NCBI GenBank assembly: GCA_016212375.1 | Contig: JACRGH010000010.1 | Coordinates: 1-59,884, forward strand | DNA length: 59,884 nucleotides | DNA from: Candidatus Micrarchaeota archaeon | Lineage (GTDB): Archaea > Micrarchaeota > Micrarchaeia > Norongarragalinales > Norongarragalinaceae | Direction: 5' to 3' | Shown: positions 3,526 through 34,025 of the stretch, piece after piece | How positions within the stretch are numbered: position 1 is the stretch's first letter | How the letters are laid out: each line of letters opens with the position of its first letter | Program-made: the position numbers and the translations under genes | The notes under the pieces: generated by a model | What the model saw: the letters and a program-made list of their open reading frames with translations, nothing else | Told to the model about the DNA's origin: nothing | Databases searched by the model: none

Positions 3526-3660
3526 TCAATGACCAACGGAAAAATGCATCAGGATGCCTGCGGCCAAAAGACCGCCGCCAATCAGGAAATCACCCAATGC
3601 CATGACCAAAATACCGGCGGCCATCAGCCCATAGCAAAGATAACCCAACAACTTGCTCAA
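3526..3660 (-). CDS. 44-aa mini membrane peptide, resembles 2762-2902
   Basis: The TTG start overlaps the TGA stop of the upstream gene (TTGA). Translation: SKLLGYLCYGLMAAGILVMALGDFLIGGGLLAAGILMHFSVGH. Translated by eye. Confidence 0.4.
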   Translation of the reverse strand: MSKLLGYLCYGLMAAGILVMALGDFLIGGGLLAAGILMHFSVGH

Positions 3661-3971
3661 CCGCTGGTCAGTTCCTGAGCCGTCTTTCCGGTGGCTTGTT
3701 TTAAAAGAGCCGGGTCAATTTTACCATAACAACTGCCATAGCGGTCCGGGTGGTGCGACAGGTGCTGGATGTTGGAAATGTCATTCAAATCCCCGCAATC
3801 ACTGCCCGCGGTAGCCGCCTGTTGCTGGAATAATTGCTGGTTTTGGCCCGATTGGATGACGTTGCCATAGGCATCCTTTTGGACCCCGGTTGGAGTTGGC
3901 GAATATATGAAAAAGGCGAATGCCAGGACCAATACGACGACGAACACGAACGCATATTCCAGATTTTTCAT
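3657..3971 (-). CDS. membrane-anchored extracytoplasmic protein with two Cys and an HLSHHP motif, unknown function
   Basis: 104-aa ORF with an N-terminal TM helix (AFVFVVVLVLAFAFFIY), a Q-rich linker, then CGDLNDISNIQHLSHHPDRYGSCYG. Lies in an operon with the neighbouring genes. Confidence 0.65.
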   Translation of the reverse strand: MKNLEYAFVFVVVLVLAFAFFIYSPTPTGVQKDAYGNVIQSGQNQQLFQQQAATAGSDCGDLNDISNIQHLSHHPDRYGSCYGKIDPALLKQATGKTAQELTSG

Positions 3972-3980
3972 TTTATCACC

Positions 3981-4679
3981 TCAACGCAACGACTTGACCC
4001 AAAGCGAACCTGCGAAGGCCAAGAACAGCGCGGCCGCGGACACCAAGTAAAACGGAAGCCACGCTTTGAGTGGGAATGCCATCACGCCGTCCAAAAAGCC
4101 GTCCGTCTTAAGATGCGAATCCTGGTAGCAGGACAGCATGTACCAAAGCCCGCCGATGTTGCTCAAAACACCCAACAAAAGAAAACTGTCCTGGTAGTAG
4201 GATAGGAACGAGGCGGCAGCCGCCAATCCGAAAGCCGGCAGTACATCGGCCACATGGTGGGCGCAGCAGGCGGCCATGGAAAATGCGGAGGTGCCACCGG
4301 ATGCGGCCACTCCGCCTGAATCGGCTTGCCCATGTAACCGCCGCAACCGGAAGAACAACTGGACCTGCAAGCCCAATCCGATGGAAAGGATGGCCATCCA
4401 GCCGGTCAATGAGGCGGTTTGGCGCAACGCATGGCTAAAGCCACCGATGGCCGTCAGCAAAATCAGGTAGAAACCTGGCAAAACGGCGGCGGCCAAGATG
4501 CCGGCTTCCACGTCGTGTTTTTCCAGGTACAGGATGGCGGCTTGGAAATGACGGATAGCAACGGTTTTGAAGCCATTTTGTGCGGATTTTCGGTCCAAGA
4601 GCAAGGAAGACCGGACCTCCTTTGATTTGGGCGCACGGAAGGCCGGTATTTGCGTCTTAAGGAAGGGTCTTTTTTTCAT
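3981..4679 (-). CDS. multi-pass membrane protein with intramembrane MAACCAHH motif, unknown function
   Basis: 232-aa ORF with about 5 hydrophobic segments. Its start overlaps the ccdA-like stop by 4 nt. The adjacent Cys-Cys-x-His-His in a TM segment suggests metal or thiol chemistry. Confidence 0.75.
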   Translation of the reverse strand: MKKRPFLKTQIPAFRAPKSKEVRSSLLLDRKSAQNGFKTVAIRHFQAAILYLEKHDVEAGILAAAVLPGFYLILLTAIGGFSHALRQTASLTGWMAILSIGLGLQVQLFFRLRRLHGQADSGGVAASGGTSAFSMAACCAHHVADVLPAFGLAAAASFLSYYQDSFLLLGVLSNIGGLWYMLSCYQDSHLKTDGFLDGVMAFPLKAWLPFYLVSAAALFLAFAGSLWVKSLR

Positions 4680-5356
4680 TTCAGCACCGAATACAAAATA
4701 AATGCCGACAGGGCGATGGCGGCTCCGCCGAGGAGGAATTTGAAATTCTTGCGGTTGTCGTGTTCCAGGGTTTCCAATTTTTCCAGGACTTTTTCATTCG
4801 ACGCGAACAAAAGCGTCAGGATCAAGGGCATGACGAAAAAGACATTGTAAAGCACCAAAAATCCGACGCCTTCCAAAAACGTCGCTTTGACCGTCAGAAA
4901 GCCCAAAACGGCCAAATAGATGCCGCCGGCGCAGGGAAACGCGCAAAGTCCGACCAGGATGCCGGCGAGCAGGGCGGCGGGAAACGTGGCTTTTTGGATG
5001 GCGTCGTTAATCCATGGTTTGCTCATTTTGGGGATGACCAGCGTTTCGGTGCCGCGGATGCCGTCCAGGATGCTGATCAGTCCGATGACAATCAAAAGTA
5101 AGGAGCCGAAGATGGCAAAAAAGTGTCCCGGAAACAGGGAAATGGCTTTGAGGATGCCAAGACCTATCAGGAAATAGGTGAGAAAGACGCCGGCGATGTA
5201 CGCGCCTCCGATGAGCAAAATATTGGTTTTGGAGCGCTTGATGGACAAAAGGAAGGCGATGAAAAACAATAGGACGGCAAATCCGCAAGGGTGTATGCCG
5301 TCCAAAAAGCCGGACGTGGTTACCAACGCCGCCAATTCCGCAAAGTTTGCCGTCAT
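4676..5356 (-). CDS. ccdA: CcdA/DsbD-family transmembrane thiol:disulfide electron transporter
   Basis: 226 aa, about 6 TM helices. Two conserved membrane-embedded Cys in Pro-Cys contexts (GIHPCGF and CAFPCAGGIY), typical of the CcdA/DsbD core. Confidence 0.85.
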   Translation of the reverse strand: MTANFAELAALVTTSGFLDGIHPCGFAVLLFFIAFLLSIKRSKTNILLIGGAYIAGVFLTYFLIGLGILKAISLFPGHFFAIFGSLLLIVIGLISILDGIRGTETLVIPKMSKPWINDAIQKATFPAALLAGILVGLCAFPCAGGIYLAVLGFLTVKATFLEGVGFLVLYNVFFVMPLILTLLFASNEKVLEKLETLEHDNRKNFKFLLGGAAIALSAFILYSVLK

Positions 5357-5380: not shown

Positions 5381-5935
5381 TCATTTTTTTAGCCCCAAAA
5401 ACATCAAACCCCCCGTTGCCGCAATCAGCAAAGCGGGAATGGCGTATTTGGCGTAATCTTGCCCCGGCGCGGCTACGGGTTGCCCCCAGCGCGAATACAC
5501 TTGGCGTTGACCTTGAGATAACGTCTCATAAGACGTAATCCCGGCCTCCATCGAATCCTGATAGACGACCAACGGCCGGCCGGGTTTCGGCTCATTTAGA
5601 AAACCTTGGACCGCCTCCAGAGGAACGTGGCCTTCCAGCACGTATTGACCGTCCAGAAGGGCGATCATATGTCCCTGCATATCCAACGGAACGCCGAACT
5701 TTTGCTGAAGTTGGGCGACCTCTTGGCGTTTTTGCGGATCATTGATGTAATCACTCATCCGGATTTGATCCGCAGAAATGCCATTTTTTTCCATCAAAAC
5801 GAAAAATTCCTTCAAATACAGCTCACAGTGGTTGCACGCGTCGTTCTTGTAGATGACCACGCGCGGCGATGCGGCATTGACCATAGGCAACAACAAGACG
5901 GCTAACAACAACCAAACCTTCGGATAAGCGTTCAT
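5381..5935 (-). CDS. CopG/DUF411-like metal-binding protein with signal peptide and C-terminal TM anchor
   Basis: VVIYKNDACNHCELYL ... KFGVPLDMQGHMIALLDGQYVLEGHVPLEAVQGFLNEPKP aligns by eye with the DUF411 pattern (YK.P.CGCC ... G.P...SCHT..V.GY..EGHVP......L). The Cys motifs are altered (CNHC and QGH). GAGGTGA lies upstream of the start. Confidence 0.65.
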   Translation of the reverse strand: MNAYPKVWLLLAVLLLPMVNAASPRVVIYKNDACNHCELYLKEFFVLMEKNGISADQIRMSDYINDPQKRQEVAQLQQKFGVPLDMQGHMIALLDGQYVLEGHVPLEAVQGFLNEPKPGRPLVVYQDSMEAGITSYETLSQGQRQVYSRWGQPVAAPGQDYAKYAIPALLIAATGGLMFLGLKK

Positions 5936-6075: not shown

Positions 6076-6300
6076 TCAACACCCTCCGACTTGGTTGGGC
6101 AAGCCGTTCAAACCGCCGCCTTGTCCGGCTTGCGCCGGAACCTGTGCTGCGACCGGTTGGGCCGCGATGGACGCCGGATTGTACGAGCCCGGGTTGGTTT
6201 TGGCCAAATCCGACTTGAGACCATTGAGTTCAAAGGCCTGGAACACGGATGCAGCCAGAAGCATCACCAACAAGGCGCTTAACAGGATGTTTTGGTCCAT
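6076..6300 (-). CDS. 74-aa membrane-anchored protein ending in PNQVGGC (tail family member 1)
   Basis: ORF-track 6076..6753 trimmed to the ATG at 6300, which has GGAGG 8 nt upstream. N-terminal TM helix, SVFQAFELNGLKS, an A/Q/P/G-rich linker, then the C-terminus GLPNQVGGC-stop. Confidence 0.7.
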   Translation of the reverse strand: MDQNILLSALLVMLLAASVFQAFELNGLKSDLAKTNPGSYNPASIAAQPVAAQVPAQAGQGGGLNGLPNQVGGC

Positions 6301-6365
6301 ACGATTATCCTCCTTTTTCATTCGGTTTCCGTTTGGTTCCGGCTTATCATACCAACGGCGCGCGT

Positions 6366-6659
6366 TTAGCAGCCGCCGACTTGGTTCGGCACGTTGGCCA
6401 ATTGGCCTCCGCCCAACGCGTTGCTGGCGGCTTGTTGTTGGACGAATTGGCCCGGATGCATGCGCGCCATCATCTGTTCGTAGGTTTCCGCACCGCCGCC
6501 GGATATGCTCCGGACAGGCGCCGAGGCGAACGATACGCCCGAAGTTTTGGCAGCCATTTGGCTTTTGAGACCGGTCAGCTCGAACGCCTGAAATACCGAA
6601 GTGACCAGCAACAGCGCCATCAGACCGGATAAAATCACGTAGTTGTCCATTGGTTTCAT
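6366..6659 (-). CDS. 97-aa membrane-anchored protein ending in PNQVGGC (tail family member 2)
   Basis: N-terminal TM helix, SVFQAFELTGLKS, a Met/His patch (YEQMMARMHPGQF), then the C-terminus NVPNQVGGC-stop. An alternative ATG lies at 6650. The ATG at 6659 overlaps the stop of the 54-aa ORF (ATGA). Confidence 0.7.
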   Translation of the reverse strand: MKPMDNYVILSGLMALLLVTSVFQAFELTGLKSQMAAKTSGVSFASAPVRSISGGGAETYEQMMARMHPGQFVQQQAASNALGGGQLANVPNQVGGC

Positions 6660-6820
6660 CGTCCTCCGTTTGTTTTTTTAAGGGTCGCCGTGTTTTTGGC
6701 ATTTTTTGGCGCTTCGATGGCGCAGGTGCCTTGTTGGCGCGGTTTGCAATCAAAACAATACTCCGACGTGTCCCCGCAGCAGGACAAATACGGTTTTTGA
6801 CATTTTTTGCATCGTTGCAT
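6656..6820 (-). CDS. 54-aa Cys-rich zinc-ribbon-like protein (unannotated micro-ORF)
   Basis: Translated by eye: MQRCKKCQKPYLSCCGDTSEYCFDCKPRQQGTCAIEAPKNAKNTATLKKTNGGR. Pattern CxxC-x6-CC-x6-CxxC-x7-C. GGAGG lies upstream, and its TGA overlaps the ATG of the next gene. Below the ORF-track size cutoff. Confidence 0.45.
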   Translation of the reverse strand: MQRCKKCQKPYLSCCGDTSEYCFDCKPRQQGTCAIEAPKNAKNTATLKKTNGGR

Positions 6821-6861
6821 ATGTTTTCAAAACCTCCAGTTCTGGTTCATTTTCGTTGAAT

Positions 6862-7722
6862 TCAGCAGCCGCCGACTTGGTTGGGAATACCGGCCGGTCC
6901 CGAAGCCGAGCTTTGTGCAGCGGCAGCGGTTTTTTCAAATCCGCGGTACTTGTTCGACGTCAGGTCGATGATGTTGAGGGGTTTGCCGGCGGCTTCGAAG
7001 GCCAACGCCTTGGTCAGCATGGGTTTGGGGAAGAACAGCACCTTCCATTTGCCCAATTCTTCCAGGATTTGGTCGTCCGTGTACTCGCCGCCGTGTTTGG
7101 TGACCAGATATTTGGCAAGACCCCGCATGACATACGAGTGTTGGCAGCCGCATGCCGCCTGACCGTTGGCAAAAACGATGGACTCCGCGCCGCAACAGTA
7201 CTCACATGAGATTTGGAGCGTGATTTTGGTGTATCTGGCGAGTTGTTCCGGGTTCAGCGTGGTGCCGTCATCCAAGGGGGATAAAACGGCCATGGCTGAA
7301 ACCGGGTCGTCGTAGGATATGCGAAGTTCGGGTCCGTAAATGGCCGGAATGCCTTTGGACATGACTTTGGCGGACAACGCCTGCAATTGGGCTGAGGTTC
7401 CGGCGTTGGCATTGGTGGATGACAACGTGTTGGAAGGCGTATTGGTTTGGGTGGCAAAGGAAGCCGCCGAAGAGGCAACGCCGGCGTATTGGGCCGCGAC
7501 TTTGATGTCCGTGATTTGCAGTTGGTTGTAAGCCGTCAGTGCGACGACCAGGCCGATAAGGATGAACAGGATCCAGGTGGTTTGGGAGGGTTGCTCCGGA
7601 TTGGCACGATCGGATTCAGGGTCATGACCAGGGCCCGCGTGCGTAGAGGGGTGGGCGTCCGATGATGAGTGGATTGGACGCGCGTGCGGATTATCGTGCG
7701 AATGTTCTTTCAAATCAAACAC
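6862..7722 (-). CDS. 286-aa membrane protein with His-rich N-tail and Cys cluster, ending in PNQVGGC (tail family member 3)
   Basis: His-rich cytoplasmic tail (HSHDNPHARPIHSSSDAHPSTHAGPGHD), one TM helix, TAYNQLQITDIKV, a Cys cluster ISCEYCCGAES...ACGCQHS (reminiscent of PCYCGC-type domains), then the C-terminus GIPNQVGGC-stop. The GTG at 7722 is part of a GAGGTG, so the TTG at 7713 may be the real start. Confidence 0.8.
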   Translation of the reverse strand: MFDLKEHSHDNPHARPIHSSSDAHPSTHAGPGHDPESDRANPEQPSQTTWILFILIGLVVALTAYNQLQITDIKVAAQYAGVASSAASFATQTNTPSNTLSSTNANAGTSAQLQALSAKVMSKGIPAIYGPELRISYDDPVSAMAVLSPLDDGTTLNPEQLARYTKITLQISCEYCCGAESIVFANGQAACGCQHSYVMRGLAKYLVTKHGGEYTDDQILEELGKWKVLFFPKPMLTKALAFEAAGKPLNIIDLTSNKYRGFEKTAAAAQSSASGPAGIPNQVGGC

Positions 7723-7746
7723 CTCTCGAAATGCTTTACTAACTGT

Positions 7747-7753
7747 GTAACGC
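7747..7753. promoter_or_regulatory. GTAACGC heptamer between a TATA-like element and the start of the 7722 operon (candidate operator half-site)
   Basis: The same heptamer recurs at 9053-9059 and 9105-9111 in the divergent promoter region of the BlaI-like gene. A TGTAAC also occurs at 7781-7786. Support is statistically weak. Confidence 0.2.
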
Positions 7754-7873
7754 TCCTACTTATTAAAGCTTTGCAATGATTGTAACACTTTGGACCGGCA
7801 CACGCCATAAGGCCCAACTCGTTGCACGCCCAAGCCCACGTTTGCATCCATATTCGCCATTTGAAGTCCCCCA

Positions 7874-9010
7874 TTAGCGGCCGCCTCCTGAGGACACATT
7901 GACCACAGTCACATTGGGCAAAGCCGCTAGGTTTCGAAACACATACGTGCCATCCGCCTCGCGAGTGCCCACTTGGGGCCAGACCTGGACAAACGACGGA
8001 TACACGCTTGCCTCGGAAGAGACCAAGACGGTGGGCAATTGCGTGACATTGTACTTGACAACCAGTGATTTACCCTGCGTACCGTTGATGCCGTTGATGT
8101 CAAATCGGCTGACATTGGTGATTTTGATTCCAAAATTTGCCAAAAGTTTCTCGTGAATGGATACATCATAACACGCCGTACAGGTCCGGGCCTCCAGTTC
8201 AACCAAACTGACCCGCCCATCGATTCGGCCACTGGTCATGTTCCGGAAAGGCGGAATGATTTGGCGAAAAATGAATGAGCCGTCCGACTCAACGGTTCCG
8301 ATTTGCCTCCAGGCATCAGCAATGGCCGAATAGGCGCTTGCGTCCTTGGATAGGATGATGAAAGGCAGGGCAGCGGGCGCGTATTTTTGGACTAGGGCGA
8401 CGCCCTCCACCGAGGTGGAATTGACGGTTCGTTCGGACTCAAGATATACGCCGGCTTTTTTGAGTTGGCCGCCCAACGACGAAAGGTCCGCACAATCTGA
8501 GCAGGACGGGTCAACCACTTGCAAAAAGGTGACCTTTCCGGTCATTTCGTACGTCACCGGATTGAAGTAAACCGGAGTTTGGCCCACGAAAATACGGGCG
8601 TCTGCTTGCGTTTTCCAGCCTTGCGAAAAAGCGGAGGCGAGGCGGGAATCATTGGTCTGACCCGTAACAATCAGCGTCGGTGCCTTGGTAACTCCGTATT
8701 TTTTGACCAATTCCTGGCCTTGCGGGGTCTGGGCCGATATGGTTTCGGTCGTGGCTTGGGATTGGCCGGCTAAAGTTGCGCTCAGCGCATTGGGACTCCA
8801 GCACTCCGAACATAACGTGCTCACCAATTGGGTAAGGCGCAATACGGGCAAAGGAGCCGGAGTGGGAATGGCCGTTTTTTGGGCGTACGAGGCGGCCAAA
8901 CCATTGACTTGCCATAAAGAATAAAGAGCGACTAACAACACCAAGACGGTCAAACCAAGAGGCAGTTGTTCCAAAAGTGCGCTTTTTTGATGCGTGCGAC
9001 CGTGTTCCAT
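7874..9010 (-). CDS. membrane-anchored protein with three CxxC thioredoxin-like repeats
   Basis: Trimmed to the ATG at 9010, which has GGAGGG 9 nt upstream. One N-terminal TM helix, then SLWQVNGLAAS. Three CxxC motifs (CSEC, CSDC, CTAC), each in a similar repeat context. Many N-x-S/T sequons. Ends SSGGGR. Confidence 0.8.
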   Translation of the reverse strand: MEHGRTHQKSALLEQLPLGLTVLVLLVALYSLWQVNGLAASYAQKTAIPTPAPLPVLRLTQLVSTLCSECWSPNALSATLAGQSQATTETISAQTPQGQELVKKYGVTKAPTLIVTGQTNDSRLASAFSQGWKTQADARIFVGQTPVYFNPVTYEMTGKVTFLQVVDPSCSDCADLSSLGGQLKKAGVYLESERTVNSTSVEGVALVQKYAPAALPFIILSKDASAYSAIADAWRQIGTVESDGSFIFRQIIPPFRNMTSGRIDGRVSLVELEARTCTACYDVSIHEKLLANFGIKITNVSRFDINGINGTQGKSLVVKYNVTQLPTVLVSSEASVYPSFVQVWPQVGTREADGTYVFRNLAALPNVTVVNVSSGGGR

Positions 9011-9159: not shown

Positions 9160-9510
9160 ATGGTCAAACAATCCGACGTGGTCAATGAAACGCTCAGCCC
9201 ATTGGAATCCGCCATCCTCGAAGCGCTGTGGCAAAGCGGGGAATCCAAGGTCCGCGACATTTTCCAGAAAATCAAGACCAAAAACCCGTGCGCCCAAAGC
9301 AGCGTGGCCGTAACGCTGGACCGGCTTTACGAGCGAAAATTGGTCCGCCGCACCATCACCACCGGCCGCGGGGGACTGGCCTATATCTACTCGACATGCC
9401 TTTCCAAGGATGAATTCCGCAAAAGTTTGGCACAACAGGCGGTCGACCGCATTGTCGAGCGTTTCGGTGAATCCGCGGTCAGCTATTTCAACGAAAAATA
9501 CCGGAAATAA
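9160..9510 (+). CDS. BlaI/MecI/CopY-family winged-helix transcriptional repressor
   Basis: 116 aa. LSPLESAILEALWQSGESKVRDIFQKI...SSVAVTLDRLYERKLVRR matches the penicillinase-repressor family layout. It has no C-terminal Cys motif of the CopY type. Confidence 0.85.
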   Translation: MVKQSDVVNETLSPLESAILEALWQSGESKVRDIFQKIKTKNPCAQSSVAVTLDRLYERKLVRRTITTGRGGLAYIYSTCLSKDEFRKSLAQQAVDRIVERFGESAVSYFNEKYRK

Positions 9511-9691
9511 ACGGTTCAGCGGAAACCTTAACCAAAAAAGCCAAAAATCCAATCAAAAGACTGAAAAAGCGAATCATTGTCAAAAAAAAGCCGCAATCCA
9601 TGCGCCACTGCCCAGAACCGGATGGCAATGCCGAGCTGACCAAGTATATCGGAAACGGATATAAACGTCCGTCGTGACAAGGATACTGCAC

Positions 9692-10429
9692 ATGTGGGGA
9701 ATGTTGGCTCATCTGGGTTCGGCCTTGGACTTATTCCTGGCCGACAGCACCAAAACGACGCTGGTCGTAGCGGCAATCGTTTCAGCCGTAACGCTGATTT
9801 GGCTTTCCCGCAACCTTGATTTTTCAGCCAAAATCCGATCCGCGTTCATGTACGCCCACGTGGCGCTATTACTGTTTCCTCCGGTTTTTTTCGCAACCAC
9901 CCTATCCTGCAAGCAAGTGGGACTGTGCGAAGTGGGTCTGACCCAGACGCTTCTGTTCGTCATCCCCATCACGTTGATATTGGGCCTGGCATTCGGTCTT
10001 TTAATCGTACCTTTATTGCACCGATTACGCTCACAACCGGAAAGCGGTAAATGGCAACGATTCGTCAACGGACAGTCCGACCGCCTCGGCCTGCACAAAG
10101 CGCCGGACGTATTCATCGTGGACTCAGGCCGGCCGGAAGCGTTCTCCACCGGCGGACTTAAACCGGCCATGTTCATCAGCATCGGCATGCTGGAAGTGCT
10201 CACCCGCCGGCAGATTGAAGCAGTGCTACTGCACGAATTAGGGCACATCCAAGAAGGCTCGCACGCGCTTAAACCGATTACGTGGCTTTTGCGTGCGCTT
10301 TATCCGGAACCGGTGTTGGCGCCGGCAGCCATCGTGGCGGAAGAGGAGCGCAAAGCCGACGCCTTTGCCGCATCGGTCCAAAAAACGGACGTCCATCTGA
10401 ACCGGGCCAAACGCAAGATGGCGGAATGA
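9692..10429 (+). CDS. BlaR1-like M56/M48 zinc metalloprotease signal transducer (no obvious sensor domain)
   Basis: Multi-TM N-terminus and an HExxH motif in LLHELGHIQEG. Lies downstream of the BlaI-like gene. The ATG at 9692 is preceded by AAGGA; the ORF-track start is a GTG at 9674. Confidence 0.8.
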   Translation: MWGMLAHLGSALDLFLADSTKTTLVVAAIVSAVTLIWLSRNLDFSAKIRSAFMYAHVALLLFPPVFFATTLSCKQVGLCEVGLTQTLLFVIPITLILGLAFGLLIVPLLHRLRSQPESGKWQRFVNGQSDRLGLHKAPDVFIVDSGRPEAFSTGGLKPAMFISIGMLEVLTRRQIEAVLLHELGHIQEGSHALKPITWLLRALYPEPVLAPAAIVAEEERKADAFAASVQKTDVHLNRAKRKMAE

Positions 10430-10681: not shown

Positions 10682-11632
10682 CTACGCGGCCGTTTTAGAG
10701 GCGGCCAAAACGGATGCCGGAGGCGGACACACCCCACCCTGTCCGGCAAACGGTTTCGGCGCGGTGCCGGCAAGGCCCGCTTCGAATTGGCTTACGCTTT
10801 GGGGCCCGACCAGGGCCGATCCGTTGATGAAAAATGTCGGCGTGCCGTAGATTCCCGCGGCTTTTCCGGCTTCCACGTCTTTTTGGACGCGAGACAGGGT
10901 GGCGTTGGAATCCAAGCACTGTGCAAACGCCGTTTGGTTCAGGCCCAAAGTAGCGGCATTCTGGAGCAGGTCCTCGCGCGAGTCCTGGCCAAACCGGGTG
11001 AACAACAGGTCATAATATGGCCAGAATTTTCCTTGCGCTTGTGCACAAAACGCGGCCTGCGCCGCCAAAGTGCTGTTGGCATGGGTCGGAATGGGAAACG
11101 CGCGAAACTCAAGCGTCACTTCCGGATGCTTTTGCAAAAAAGCCGATAATTCCGGCTGGGTCTTGTTCGTGAAGGGGCAGGTGAAACACCCGGCTTCCAC
11201 CATCACAAACGAGCCATTGCCCAACGTGGGACCAACACCGGGCGCCAAGAATTTCAAGCCGGCGGGCCCTTTTGCCCCCAGTACCGCGTCAAATACGCAG
11301 TATTCCGAGGAATTGGGGCCGTTGCAGTTGCCGTACGCCCAGTAATTGTACACGGAAATGCCGGAGGAAATCATGCTACCGAAAAACAGGACGACCAGCA
11401 ATAACGAAAACAATTGGAAGTTTTTGTGGATGACGCGGGCGCCGGCCGGAAAGATGGGCAGCAATTTGGCCACAATTTGAGCATGCAACCGCTCATCCAA
11501 TTTGGACTCACAGGGTCGTAAAGTAACGGTTCGGAAGACGCAACCAAGCGCCTCTTTGGCTAAAATCCGGTATTTGGCGGAAAAGATGCCCAAAATGCCG
11601 AAGACGAACAATGCGACGAAACAAAGAACCAT
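10682..11632 (-). CDS. membrane-anchored DsbA-family thiol:disulfide oxidoreductase
   Basis: 316 aa with two N-terminal TM helices carrying extra Cys pairs. Thioredoxin fold with a CFTC active site and the DsbA-like IYGTPTFFING motif. Confidence 0.85.
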   Translation of the reverse strand: MVLCFVALFVFGILGIFSAKYRILAKEALGCVFRTVTLRPCESKLDERLHAQIVAKLLPIFPAGARVIHKNFQLFSLLLVVLFFGSMISSGISVYNYWAYGNCNGPNSSEYCVFDAVLGAKGPAGLKFLAPGVGPTLGNGSFVMVEAGCFTCPFTNKTQPELSAFLQKHPEVTLEFRAFPIPTHANSTLAAQAAFCAQAQGKFWPYYDLLFTRFGQDSREDLLQNAATLGLNQTAFAQCLDSNATLSRVQKDVEAGKAAGIYGTPTFFINGSALVGPQSVSQFEAGLAGTAPKPFAGQGGVCPPPASVLAASKTAA

Positions 11633-32138: not shown

Positions 32139-34025
32139 TCAACGAAGTCGAATACTATCCAAGTTCATCGGCGCACGCGTCTCGCAATGCATCATATGGT
32201 TGATGGTGCGGGCGAACTCTTCAGTTTTCGCCTCATCACCGTGCATGGTGAAGATGCGCTGCGGCCGGGGACGCAAGTTGCGCAAAAAGGCCAACAATTG
32301 CGCCCGGTCGGAGTGACCCGAGTAGCCGTCCACGGTGTGCACCTGCATGTTGACTTTGAGGCTGTCCAGTTTTTTGTGCTCATTGAGGATGGGTACTTCC
32401 CGCTCGCCGCCTTGGATGCGCCGACCCAAAGTCATGGCGCCTTGGTAACCGACGAACAATAGCGCGTTTTTGGGGTCGTGCGCCAACATCTTCAGATACT
32501 CCACCGACGAACCACCCGAAAGCATGCCGGACGGCGCCAAAATCACGCAAGGCTCATCGCTTTCAGCAATGCTTTTACGCTCCTTGGATGTGGCATGCTT
32601 GAAAATGGGGTTGTCAAACGGAGAATTGTTCTGCAAAATCCGGCGCTGGACGTTGCGCTTGAGGTATTCGGGGTAAACCGTGTGGATGGCCGAGGCTTCC
32701 TTGCTCATGCCGTCGATGTAGACCGGAATGTTTTCGCCCGAAATCTTGCTTTCCAAGGACACCATCATTTCCTGCGCGCGGCCCACGGCGAACACCGGAA
32801 TCAATACTTTGCCGCGATTCGCCACGGTTTCGCGGACAATCTGGGCGATGCGCTCTTCGCAATCGGAATAGCGGGGCAACAAGTCGTTCCGGCCGCCATA
32901 GGTCGCTTCAATGAACATGGTCTCCACTCGCGGGAAACGCGTGTCCGCCGGATCCAATAAGGAGGTGCGGCCATACTTGATGTCCGCGGTAAAAACCAAA
33001 TTGTGCAAGCCCTCGCCGATGTGCAAGTGCACCTGCGAACTGCCCAAAATGTGGCCGGCATTGTGGAACGTGAAGCGGATTTCAGGCGTCACGTCGGTAA
33101 CTTCACCGTAATCCCGGACAATCATGTGACTAAGCTGCTTTTTGATGTCCTTTTCGCCGTAGGGGCAGCCCTTTCCTTCGGCATTCATGACCGAGAGGCA
33201 GTCCTGTTGAAGCAAAATGGACAAGTCGCGCGTGGGGGGCGCGCAGTATACCGGGCCTTCGTAGCCGTAGGCGTACAAATAGGGGATGAAACCGCAGTGG
33301 TCCAAGTGAGCATGGGACAAAATGACGGCATCCAGTTGTTCCAATGCCAAATTCATGGCATTGAGGTAGGGGTACGCGCGCGTGGCGTCCGACGTATCGG
33401 TATTCATGCCGCAATCCACCAAAACGTTGCTCTTGGGCGTTTGCAACAGCATGCACGTCCGCCCCACTTCGCGGAAACCGCCCAACATGGTGACTTTGAT
33501 CCAATCACAGCTACCCGCCGGCACGACCATTTTCTTGCCCAACGCGGATAAGAATTTCTTGCGCTGTTCCGACGATGCCAAGACATTGTTGCGGATGGCG
33601 CGCTCGACTTCCGAGGGCGAGGTGGGCGAGCGCAGGACGCGGGGCGACCAGCCGGTATTCAATACGATTTGCTTGAGTACCGAGCCCCCTTTTCCAATGA
33701 CCAAGCCGGGCTTGAGTGCCTCGATGACCACTTCGTGGAAAATCGGGTCGAATTTGATATCTTGGACACCCGCTTCCGGCGGTATGGTGCTTTTGACTTT
33801 TTCCAAGGCACGGGAAGGCGGCATCAGTTCGGATGCGTCCACGCGCAACAATACTTTTTTGCGGACTTTGGACGCGATTTTGGTAATCAGGTGCTCATCG
33901 GAGTAAAAGGCCTGGATGTTCTTGACGTAGATGACGATTTGGGGGCCTTCAAACTCGATTTTGGTCAGGAGGCATTCCGGGGGCAGCACTTGCTGGACGG
34001 ATTCCTGCATTTCTTTCAAATCCAT
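32139..34025 (-). CDS. archaeal cleavage and polyadenylation specificity factor 1 homologue (aCPSF1; KH domains + metallo-beta-lactamase/beta-CASP RNase)
   Basis: 628 aa. N-terminal KH-type GKGGS motif (VIGKGGSVLKQI), HAHLDHCG metallo-beta-lactamase motif, and beta-CASP region ending in GHSD. Confidence 0.92.
   Translation of the reverse strand: MDLKEMQESVQQVLPPECLLTKIEFEGPQIVIYVKNIQAFYSDEHLITKIASKVRKKVLLRVDASELMPPSRALEKVKSTIPPEAGVQDIKFDPIFHEVVIEALKPGLVIGKGGSVLKQIVLNTGWSPRVLRSPTSPSEVERAIRNNVLASSEQRKKFLSALGKKMVVPAGSCDWIKVTMLGGFREVGRTCMLLQTPKSNVLVDCGMNTDTSDATRAYPYLNAMNLALEQLDAVILSHAHLDHCGFIPYLYAYGYEGPVYCAPPTRDLSILLQQDCLSVMNAEGKGCPYGEKDIKKQLSHMIVRDYGEVTDVTPEIRFTFHNAGHILGSSQVHLHIGEGLHNLVFTADIKYGRTSLLDPADTRFPRVETMFIEATYGGRNDLLPRYSDCEERIAQIVRETVANRGKVLIPVFAVGRAQEMMVSLESKISGENIPVYIDGMSKEASAIHTVYPEYLKRNVQRRILQNNSPFDNPIFKHATSKERKSIAESDEPCVILAPSGMLSGGSSVEYLKMLAHDPKNALLFVGYQGAMTLGRRIQGGEREVPILNEHKKLDSLKVNMQVHTVDGYSGHSDRAQLLAFLRNLRPRPQRIFTMHGDEAKTEEFARTINHMMHCETRAPMNLDSIRLR

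Follow-up and report, generated by a model that had tools for sequence, protein, structure and literature searches.

What purpose is served by a cysteine that forms the very last residue of three neighbouring membrane proteins? The question is raised by a 59,884-nucleotide contig of a Candidatus Micrarchaeota archaeon (JACRGH010000010.1, assembly GCA_016212375.1), analysed over its whole length and called the window below; an FttA/aCPSF1 gene at 32139-34025 marks it as archaeal. In a preliminary description of this DNA, three consecutive minus-strand genes (6076-6300, 6366-6659 and 6862-7722) were reported to end in exactly PNQVGGC followed by the stop codon, and we verified both the open reading frames (ORFs) and their tail codons. 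The answer that we tentatively favour, at a little under even confidence, is that the tail is a tethered arm with a terminal thiol, which would dock on a cysteine-cluster domain and pass Cu(I) or a disulfide, and that it is no sorting tag. A tethered thiol carrier for metal or redox chemistry was one of two ideas offered at the outset. It is favoured by the lone terminal cysteine, a linker predicted to be disordered, an operon of thioredoxin (Trx), CcdA, DsbA and copper-type genes, and co-evolution of tail and domain.

Three genes with one tail

The tail is encoded as CCC/CCG AAC CAA GTC GGC/GGA GGC/GGG TGC/TGT, and across all six frames of the 59,884 bp these three are the only ORFs ending in VGGC. 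Each product begins with a hydrophobic helix followed by a motif of the type Q-x-x-[QE]-[LI]-x-x-[LI]-K, which recurs in 107 of 148 small relatives. A shared N-terminal anchor had been described for these genes and for the next one upstream (7874-9010, encoding a Trx-repeat protein); it holds for the three tailed genes, and the juxtamembrane likeness of the fourth is weak. Nor does the fourth gene belong to the series, as had been supposed. Its relatives at other loci lack the tail in 22 of 22 cases, so that the one-base resemblance of its SSGGGR end (GGC GGC CGC TAA) to the tail is a coincidence.

The largest product (286 amino acids, aa) comprises a His-rich N-terminus, a transmembrane (TM) helix, an AYNQLQI juxtamembrane motif, a linker, a domain with the signature CEYCCG...CGCxH, a second linker and PNQVGGC. 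Because its version in the public collection (P0001) has 283 aa, the true start is probably the TTG at 7713, which gives that length. In the 97-aa product the helix is followed by a disordered linker, a Met/His helix (ETYEQMMARMHP), a second linker and PNQVGGC. The cargo between the shared ends had been described correctly overall, except that the His-rich stretch of the 286-aa protein is N-terminal and predicted to be cytoplasmic rather than a tail. Both small genes are preceded by GGAGG-type ribosome-binding sites, with GGAGG placed 8 nt before the ATG of 6076-6300. Scans of the window for tRNA genes and Rfam families gave no matches, and promoter and terminator scans were little informative, the host being an archaeon.

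The terminal motif in archaea and bacteria

PNQVGGC proved to be the local form of a C-terminal motif, [M/Q]-V-G-G-C-COOH, in which the cysteine always comes last. For the 286-aa protein, 1456 homologues were found (E <= 0.01), all without an assigned name; among the 120 best, 115 have [MQ]VGGC as their C-terminus. Counted over 167 tails, the residue is Cys in 167 at position -1, Gly in 165 at -2, Gly in 167 at -3 and Val in 166 at -4; position -5 is Met in 148 and Gln in 19. L-P-x often precedes the tail. A single-sequence search with the 97-aa protein returned itself alone. Its relatives emerged through a profile, which gave 653 clusters, all labelled 'hypothetical'. A profile search of 1.84 billion representative proteins yielded only 329 clusters and reached divergent members ending in MVG[A/S/D/E]C, WVG[D/E]C, Q[Q/E/S]G[G/E/S]C, MIGGC or FVGSC; judged from these sequences, the broader form of the motif is [MQWF]-x-G-x-Cys-COOH.

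In 1.15 Mb of fetched loci, GGC was the commonest C-terminal ORF tripeptide, with 165 occurrences vs 27 for the runner-up. A genome-wide DNA pattern scan confined credible G-M-V-G-G-C-stop ORFs to two families: the domain protein (family A) and the small proteins (family B). The hits that other organisms gave were mostly short, at 5-60 codons, and the three longer ORFs among them lacked every family feature. The searched literature contained no paper on the motif, the domain or the small proteins, and the tailed proteins had no match in Pfam, NCBIfam, a PDB sequence search or Foldseek against the PDB.

Relatives are present in at least 455 species-representative genomes. Lineages named in record titles were nearly all DPANN, including Micrarchaeota, Woesearchaeota, Pacearchaeota, Aenigmatarchaeota, Iainarchaeum and Nanoarchaeota among the matches listed. 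The pattern scan also found the pair, in the same operon layout, in bacteria of the candidate phyla radiation (CPR), namely Paceibacterota, Nealsonbacteria, Uhrbacteria and Magasanikbacteria; with the archaeal window, this makes the system common to both domains. On contig L194, a bacterial RecA gene (E 3.5e-137) lies beside genes for BlaI, BlaR1, a CEYCCG protein, a small tailed protein and a Trx protein. An operon of BlaI, BlaR1-like protease, CEYCCG protein, small tailed protein, Trx repeats and cupredoxin is common to DPANN (the window and L001-L080) and CPR loci (L092, L113, L157, L162 and L194), which implies transfer between domains, among two groups of ultrasmall organisms.

One record departs from the terminal rule: the reading of P0232 (493 aa) runs 18 residues beyond ...LPSMVGGC (KINRKWTYYISFLSSLGL). 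A frameshift or sequencing artefact could account for the extension, as could read-through of the stop codon.

The domain protein and its small partners

Family A proteins are type-II membrane proteins, often with a His-rich N-terminal segment, then one TM helix, a linker, a domain of ~150 residues, a Ser/Gly linker and the tail. The domain holds five cysteines and one histidine. C173, E174, Y175, C176, C177, G178, C191, C193 and H195 are invariant, as are several basic residues, including R163, R200, K225, K227 and K238. AlphaFold2 (AF2), run with 96 sequences, modelled residues ~110-260 with confidence (predicted local distance difference test, pLDDT, >90) as a mostly helical fold. A Foldseek search of the PDB with this domain found nothing (best E 0.79); a PDB-sequence profile, Pfam and NCBIfam were likewise empty. 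In the AF2 model the tail of the domain protein scores a pLDDT of 75, vs 62-68 for its own linker and ~54 for the tail of the small protein, a weak hint that the tail may pack against the domain.

In P0255, P0198 and L013 4079-5317, an N-terminal multi-pass membrane domain (C-P-x-C) is fused to the CE[YF]CCG domain. The L013 fusion has no tail; a small tailed gene follows it directly.

Family B comprises proteins of 50-130 aa encoded directly downstream of the family A gene, one to three per locus. At 78 of 79 loci at least one small tailed ORF was present, and of the 93 such ORFs, 90 follow the domain gene on its own strand at a distance of 0-2 kb; only three were found outside the operon, in ~676 kb of flanking DNA. 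The terminal cysteine is the sole cysteine in 115 of 120 small relatives. The linkers (median ~40 aa) are rich in Ser, Ala and Gly and disordered in AF2. For the 97-aa window protein, AF2 placed helices at residues 6-38 and 57-67, the latter exactly the Met/His motif, with the remainder predicted disordered to the end. About one third of family B carries this conserved helix, E-x-M-M-x-x-[M/H]-H-[P/G], in forms such as 'GETYEQMMARMHPDQ' in the 97-aa protein and 'DTSGWTEDEKMMYEHHGTLPAR' elsewhere. About 63% are 'linker-only', as is the 74-aa window protein.

A cytoplasmic N-terminal [D/E]-C-C followed by a His/Lys-rich stretch precedes the TM helix in 29 of 148 small tailed proteins. As the 286-aa protein also has a His-rich N-terminus, these segments suggest ligand sites on both sides of the membrane. 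Small genes often start near the stop codon of the upstream tailed gene, and their longest ORF then reads the upstream tail out of frame ('EWWEAVKM'). This indicates tight translational coupling of the tailed genes and is a trap for ORF callers.

Co-evolution of tails and domain

The tails of one locus agree with each other. Among 118 loci with at least two tails, position -5 is Met in all tails of 110 loci and Gln in all tails of eight, with no mixed locus; under independence such concordance has a probability of 10^-7.4. Fresh gene conversion does not account for it, because tails within one locus differ at synonymous sites. A change between Met and Gln at -5 takes two base changes, and Leu, Ile or Val never occurs there. 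In blue-copper sites, either Met or Gln can serve as the axial ligand.

Position -5 also varies together with the domain. On a neighbour-joining tree of the domain built with the tail columns removed, ~13 switches between Met and Gln were counted, a number in which such a tree may include too many independent events. The nearest relative of most Q-type proteins is M-type. Domain column 234 (P234 in the window), two residues past the invariant F-F-P232, changes repeatedly with the tail by independent contrasts: it is Pro, Asp or Asn in 17 of 23 Q-type vs 14 of 166 M-type proteins (Fisher p = 2.5e-11; clade-level binomial p = 1e-7). The simplest reading of these sequence patterns is a single site, on the CEYCCG domain, that would accommodate every tail of a genome. 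A scan of the neighbouring CCxHH, DUF411-like, CcdA-like, HLSHHP, BlaI and BlaR families for residues that follow the Met/Gln state of the tail was underpowered, with 2-5 Q-type loci per family.

A docking arm as proposed mechanism

Four features point to a small unit of specific binding and away from a generic exposed thiol: the strict terminal position, the invariant Gly at -3, the restriction of -5 to Met or Gln, and covariation with the domain. With the cysteine in last place, a free alpha-carboxylate stands beside the thiol. We hypothesize that the CEYCCG domain has a site that receives this carboxylate, the thiol and residue -5, and that the tail of family A would bind there in cis and those of family B in trans. 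The conserved juxtamembrane helical face, Q-x-x-Q-L-x-x-L, may hold both proteins together. Positive residues precede the N-terminal helix, and we infer an N-in/C-out topology that would place the C-terminus outside. Through docking, the arm and the Cys5His cluster of the domain would then exchange, in either direction, a disulfide or a thiophilic ion, for which Cu(I) is the likeliest candidate. The Trx-repeat, CcdA-like and DsbA-like proteins would keep the exposed thiols in the right redox state, and the BlaI/BlaR1-like pair, or a membrane-anchored winged helix-turn-helix (wHTH) regulator, would turn the operon on under envelope stress.

The operon neighbourhood

Neighbourhood counts were obtained from clustered ORFs of 81 loci; features with coordinates are collected in Table 1. 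Two types of regulator occur upstream, either a membrane-anchored wHTH protein (52 loci) or, as in the window, a divergent BlaI/CopY-family repressor with a BlaR1-like protease. The repressor was present in 24 loci and always divergent. The penicillin-binding sensor domain is absent from the 251-aa BlaR1-type protease of the window. Downstream genes encode an HCPLC membrane protein (41 loci), a DUF411/CopG-like protein together with a CcdA-like protein (37) and a cytoplasmic protein ending in DCCKE (28). The HCPLC family (cluster 3, e.g. L040 9373-9915) has no Pfam match; with the CCxHH family it supplies the most frequent downstream neighbours. The CCxHH protein (cluster 2) occurs in 44 of 81 loci, 50 of its 52 members lie on the same strand, and in the window the first 4 nt of its gene are also the last 4 of the gene upstream. 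The DUF411/CopG-like cluster stands directly downstream in 37 loci. The search for a candidate processing enzyme among the neighbours found none that is universally conserved, the commonest neighbour, CCxHH, being present in 24 of 33 complete loci.

Copper-type genes recur nearby, with CopA in 31 loci (TRASH/YHS N-terminus), Cupredoxin_1 in 22 and Met-rich proteins in 17; PadR-TRASH, ArsR and DsbA genes were also seen. The cluster-6 representative L064 15680-17782 reads with the P1B-1 Cu+ signature of CopA, with CPCALG for the CPC of TM6, NLFWAFFYNVALIP for the NX6YNX4P of TM7 and MASSS for the MXXSS of TM8. At an Uhrbacteria locus, an HMA-DsbD_2-cupredoxin fusion adjoins the small tailed gene. 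L081, a close relative, is fully syntenic with the window. The common theme of the neighbourhood is an inducible membrane sensor that governs thiol redox in the envelope and the handling of copper or soft metals. The context given in the preliminary description stood for the BlaI repressor, the M48/M56 protease and the DsbA-like protein (E values in Table 1), and its DUF411 and DsbD-type members gave weak, sub-threshold matches.

A Cys-rich mini-ORF of 37-65 aa, C-x2-C...[S/A]-C-C-G...C-x2-C, lies within the operon and is conserved in several Micrarchaeota loci. Its CCG echoes the CEYCCG of the domain. It has no Pfam match, and the public annotation of L081 lists no gene for it.

Table 1. Coordinates of the tailed genes, their neighbours and comparison genes at other loci
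Feature	Position	Strand	Remarks
Domain gene (family A)	6862..7722	(-)	286 aa from GTG; ends PNQVGGC-stop; tail codons 6865-6885
Small partner (family B) with Met/His helix	6366..6659	(-)	97 aa; single-pass; tail codons 6369-6389
Small partner (family B), linker-only type	6076..6300	(-)	74 aa; single-pass; tail codons 6079-6099
Cys-rich mini-ORF	6656..6820	(-)	54 aa; CxxC...CCG...CxxC; between domain gene and small genes
Mini-ORF homologues	L002 10798-10953; L003 9309-9506; L005 10747-10884; L009 10841-10954		Same position
Trx-repeat protein	7874..9010	(-)	Membrane-anchored; three thioredoxin-like CxxC repeats; in 22 loci; no tail
DUF411/CopG-like CxxC protein	5381..5935	(-)	C-terminal TM helix; Pfam DUF411 E 1e-4, below gathering score
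CcdA/DsbD-type multi-pass membrane protein	4676..5356	(-)	Weak SfLAP and ArsG-family matches; conserved neighbour
CCxHH multi-pass membrane protein	3981..4679	(-)	Invariant intramembrane CCxHH; no Pfam match
HLSHHP small anchored protein	3657..3971	(-)	Cluster 5; 31 loci
BlaI/CopY-family repressor	9160..9510	(+)	Penicillinase_R E 5e-15; CopY/TcrY E 3e-7, sub-threshold
BlaR1-type membrane metalloprotease (M48/M56)	9674..10429	(+)	Peptidase_M48 E 1e-9, M56 weak; 20 loci
DsbA-like thiol-disulfide oxidoreductase	10682..11632	(-)	Membrane-anchored; DSBA E 2e-18
Small tailed proteins with N-terminal [D/E]-C-C	L038 5391-5714; L040 9062-9379; L031 10729-11049; L194 3301-3639
Small genes with tight starts	L013 10599-10898; L117; L068
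LGT gene	L053 12349-13080	(+)
LGT genes	L036 5168-5989; L064 7271-8059; L013 3119-3886; L040 6944-7738

Two side observations concern these loci. Clusters 10 and 26 (e.g. L048 3443-3955 and L050 12657-13103) have other near-terminal cysteine motifs, ...VDCCKE and ...ECCKKW; their members are predicted cytoplasmic or membrane proteins and conserved neighbours of the pair, and CKE is among the commonest ORF endings in the fetched loci (18 cases). Bona fide LGT genes (Pfam E 3e-52 to 5e-80) were found on DPANN contigs, with canonical N-terminal lipobox proteins encoded near them. One LGT-bearing contig, L053, is clearly archaeal, carrying the exosome genes Rrp4, Rrp41 and Rrp42. According to a 2025 paper, archaeal Lgt homologues had yet to be identified (PMC12462473).

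Weighing the explanations

Several points weigh against the docking arm. CopA is absent from the 60 kb of the window, and the window's own DUF411 and CcdA assignments fall below Pfam gathering scores. Docking is suggested by covariation and pLDDT values, and the count of switches given above may be inflated. The metal role is putative, as is its assignment to Cu(I), and the 63% of small proteins that are linker-only have no Met/His motif of any kind. The near-invariant V-G-G suggests a protein pocket, which docking or an enzyme would fit equally well. At its end, the N-terminal helix of family B has the pattern V-x-[A/T/S], a possible signal-peptidase site; cleavage there would set the small proteins free instead of leaving them tethered.

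The closest rival, unlikely in our judgement, is a metal-free thiol-disulfide relay or redox sensor. Here the terminal cysteine, acting in the manner of the Erv2 and thioredoxin reductase shuttle tails, would form mixed disulfides with the CEYCCG cluster or with substrates and be recycled by Trx, CcdA and DsbA. Five domain cysteines and one tail cysteine make an even six, the lone cysteine of the small proteins can pair only intermolecularly, and the operon supplies Trx repeats, a CcdA-like protein and DsbA. Covariation backs docking in such a relay equally well. Yet a pure relay leaves unexplained the Met/His helices, the cytoplasmic CC/His-rich N-termini, the recurrent CopA, cupredoxin, Met-rich and TRASH neighbours, and the occurrence of Met or Gln only at -5.

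The V-G-G pocket would also suit a different role for the domain, which we consider improbable. The CEYCCG...CGCxH domain would be a receptor or enzyme that recognizes Gly-x-Cys-COOH termini and performs covalent chemistry on its own tail and on those of the small substrates. Candidate chemistries include persulfide or thiocarboxylate formation, thioester-mediated ligation and cofactor attachment.

Doubt is greater still about the tail as a modification or attachment signal, whether for S-lipidation of a 'C-terminal lipobox' by Lgt/AliA or for sortase-like cleavage and ligation at LPxMVGGC. MVGGC matches the permissive PROSITE lipobox pattern, many tails have L-P-x before them, and genome-matched motif variants are typical of signal/enzyme pairs. 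Genuine LGT (E 5e-80 to 3e-52) occurs in 9 of 81 loci, six times directly upstream of the regulator and the pair. Its presence is explained, however, by the canonical N-terminal lipobox proteins, which reach 2.4 times background density in the LGT-containing loci. No signal-peptide h-region precedes the motif and no TM segment with a basic tail follows it. The endings MVGDC, MVGEC, WVGDC and QQGEC of divergent members place Asp or Glu before the cysteine, which is incompatible with a lipobox. Archaea and bacteria both carry the system, yet their lipid-anchoring machineries differ. A C-terminal processing or attachment tag had been the second of the two initial ideas; it is weakened by these endings, by a restriction to two co-operonic families that real sorting signals do not show, and by the lack of a candidate enzyme conserved next to the genes or across the loci.

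Structural cross-linking seems very unlikely. In this case the terminal cysteines would form intermolecular disulfides that assemble oligomers, homo- or heteromeric, or fasten the proteins to the envelope or a host, without transfer chemistry. The single exposed cysteine of each small protein, the helix-helix type of the conserved juxtamembrane motif and an episymbiont lifestyle would suit it; the DPANN and CPR carriers of the pair live as episymbionts. Cross-linking, however, needs no invariant V-G-G, no Met or Gln at -5 and no strictly terminal position, and it leaves the covariation with a specific domain residue unexplained. Stress-type regulators and metal neighbours favour an inducible detoxification or repair function instead. 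Recent local duplication or gene conversion of a functionally meaningless 3' end, raised in the preliminary description for the case that no other genome carried the motif and in keeping with 19 identical bases common to two of the three window tails, was rejected with hardly any reservation, since tails of one locus differ synonymously and the motif spans two domains, archaea and CPR bacteria, with homologues in no fewer than 455 species-representative genomes and some 1456 + 653 protein clusters.

Significance

If the docking-arm model holds, the system belongs to extracytoplasmic copper/thiol homeostasis based on flexible, ligand-bearing termini. Its new elements are a terminal pentapeptide of fixed sequence, which dedicated mini-proteins supply in trans, a receptor domain of unmatched fold and the DPANN-CPR distribution. 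A docking arm would amount to a new design of copper/thiol homeostasis in which dedicated single-pass proteins serve as carrier arms in trans, and ...[M/Q]VGGC-COOH would be a peptide-sized handle, chemically testable without cultivation. Should the domain be a C-terminus-recognizing enzyme instead, a previously unrecognized extracytoplasmic protein-tagging or carrier system would have been exchanged between DPANN and CPR. These two groups make up a large share of microbial diversity; their surface biology is mostly obscure and most of their conserved proteins are 'hypothetical'. Against this background the system is compact and easily recognized, with one Cys-cluster domain and small proteins that are little more than a tether with a terminal cysteine. 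With the motif as a rule, ~2,000 protein clusters now lacking annotation can be annotated.

Comparison with known systems

The tail shares single features with several classes of terminal signal. As in CaaX and Rab CC/CXC proteins it presents a C-terminal cysteine, and as in ThiS, MoaD and SAMP proteins it has Gly-Gly near the end. Prenylation was ruled out, the single cysteine being terminal without aaX and the proteins membrane-anchored and predicted to be extracytoplasmic. A ubiquitin-like or ThiS-MoaD-SAMP tail was ruled out as well: AF2 gives helices and disorder and no beta-grasp, and the cysteine follows GG.

Like LPXTG and PEP-, PGF- or GlyGly-CTERM signals, the tail is a short C-terminal motif on differing middles, with an occasional L-P-x prefix and a genome-specific variant. 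Unlike the signals of sortases, exosortases, archaeosortases and rhombosortases, it is found on two co-operonic families only, and a sortase-type enzyme is not conserved nearby. A sortase LPXTG signal was ruled out by the motif itself, [LP]x[MQ]VGGC-stop, with nothing after the cysteine. The three CTERM signals were ruled out since neither a TM segment nor a basic cluster follows the motif and nearly all small tailed ORFs (90 of 93) sit in one operon.

With the Lgt lipobox, the tail has in common the string [LVI]-x-[GAS]-Cys and the LGT genes near some loci. Unlike a lipobox, it stands at the extreme C-terminus after a hydrophilic Ser/Ala/Gly linker and does not end an N-terminal signal peptide; the cysteine is the last residue, outside the first ~40 in which Lgt/AliA substrates carry it. 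V-G-G-C fits the permissive PROSITE form only, and the acidic residue of MVGDC, MVGEC and WVGDC does not fit. A cognate transferase free of other substrates was likewise rejected, LGT being limited to those nine loci, where canonical lipobox proteins are encoded.

Mobile termini that carry soft ligands are closer in kind. The C-terminal Cys pair of MerA, the HCH-COOH end of Ctr1 and the tails of Erv2 and thioredoxin reductase are precedents. As in Erv2 (CGC), thioredoxin reductase (GCUG/SCCS), the DsbD cascade and ScsABCD, a mobile Cys terminus would carry electrons or disulfides between a buried site and its partners; the operon also joins the tailed genes with a membrane electron transporter of DsbD/CcdA type and with proteins of the Trx fold. 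Unlike Erv2 and thioredoxin reductase, the tail offers one cysteine rather than a pair, and no flavin or known redox domain is present. No homology of the tailed proteins to these redox shuttle-tail systems was detected, the comparison being drawn from established knowledge.

A further functional precedent is PcuC, to which PMC6669012 ascribes a flexible, Cu-donating C-terminal extension. The resemblance is functional only, as the tailed proteins had no Pfam or NCBIfam match to the PCuAC core. Unlike in PcuC/PCuAC, the tail is a fixed pentapeptide with a strictly terminal cysteine rather than a loosely Met/His-rich stretch, and separate small proteins provide it in trans as well; the putative receptor domain shows neither a known fold nor the H(M)X10MX21HXM core, and its metal binding is putative. 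Like PcuC/PCuAC, Ctr1 and MerA, in which a disordered terminal segment with soft-metal ligands hands an ion to a folded site, the system described here carries its tails on disordered linkers in a copper-type neighbourhood.

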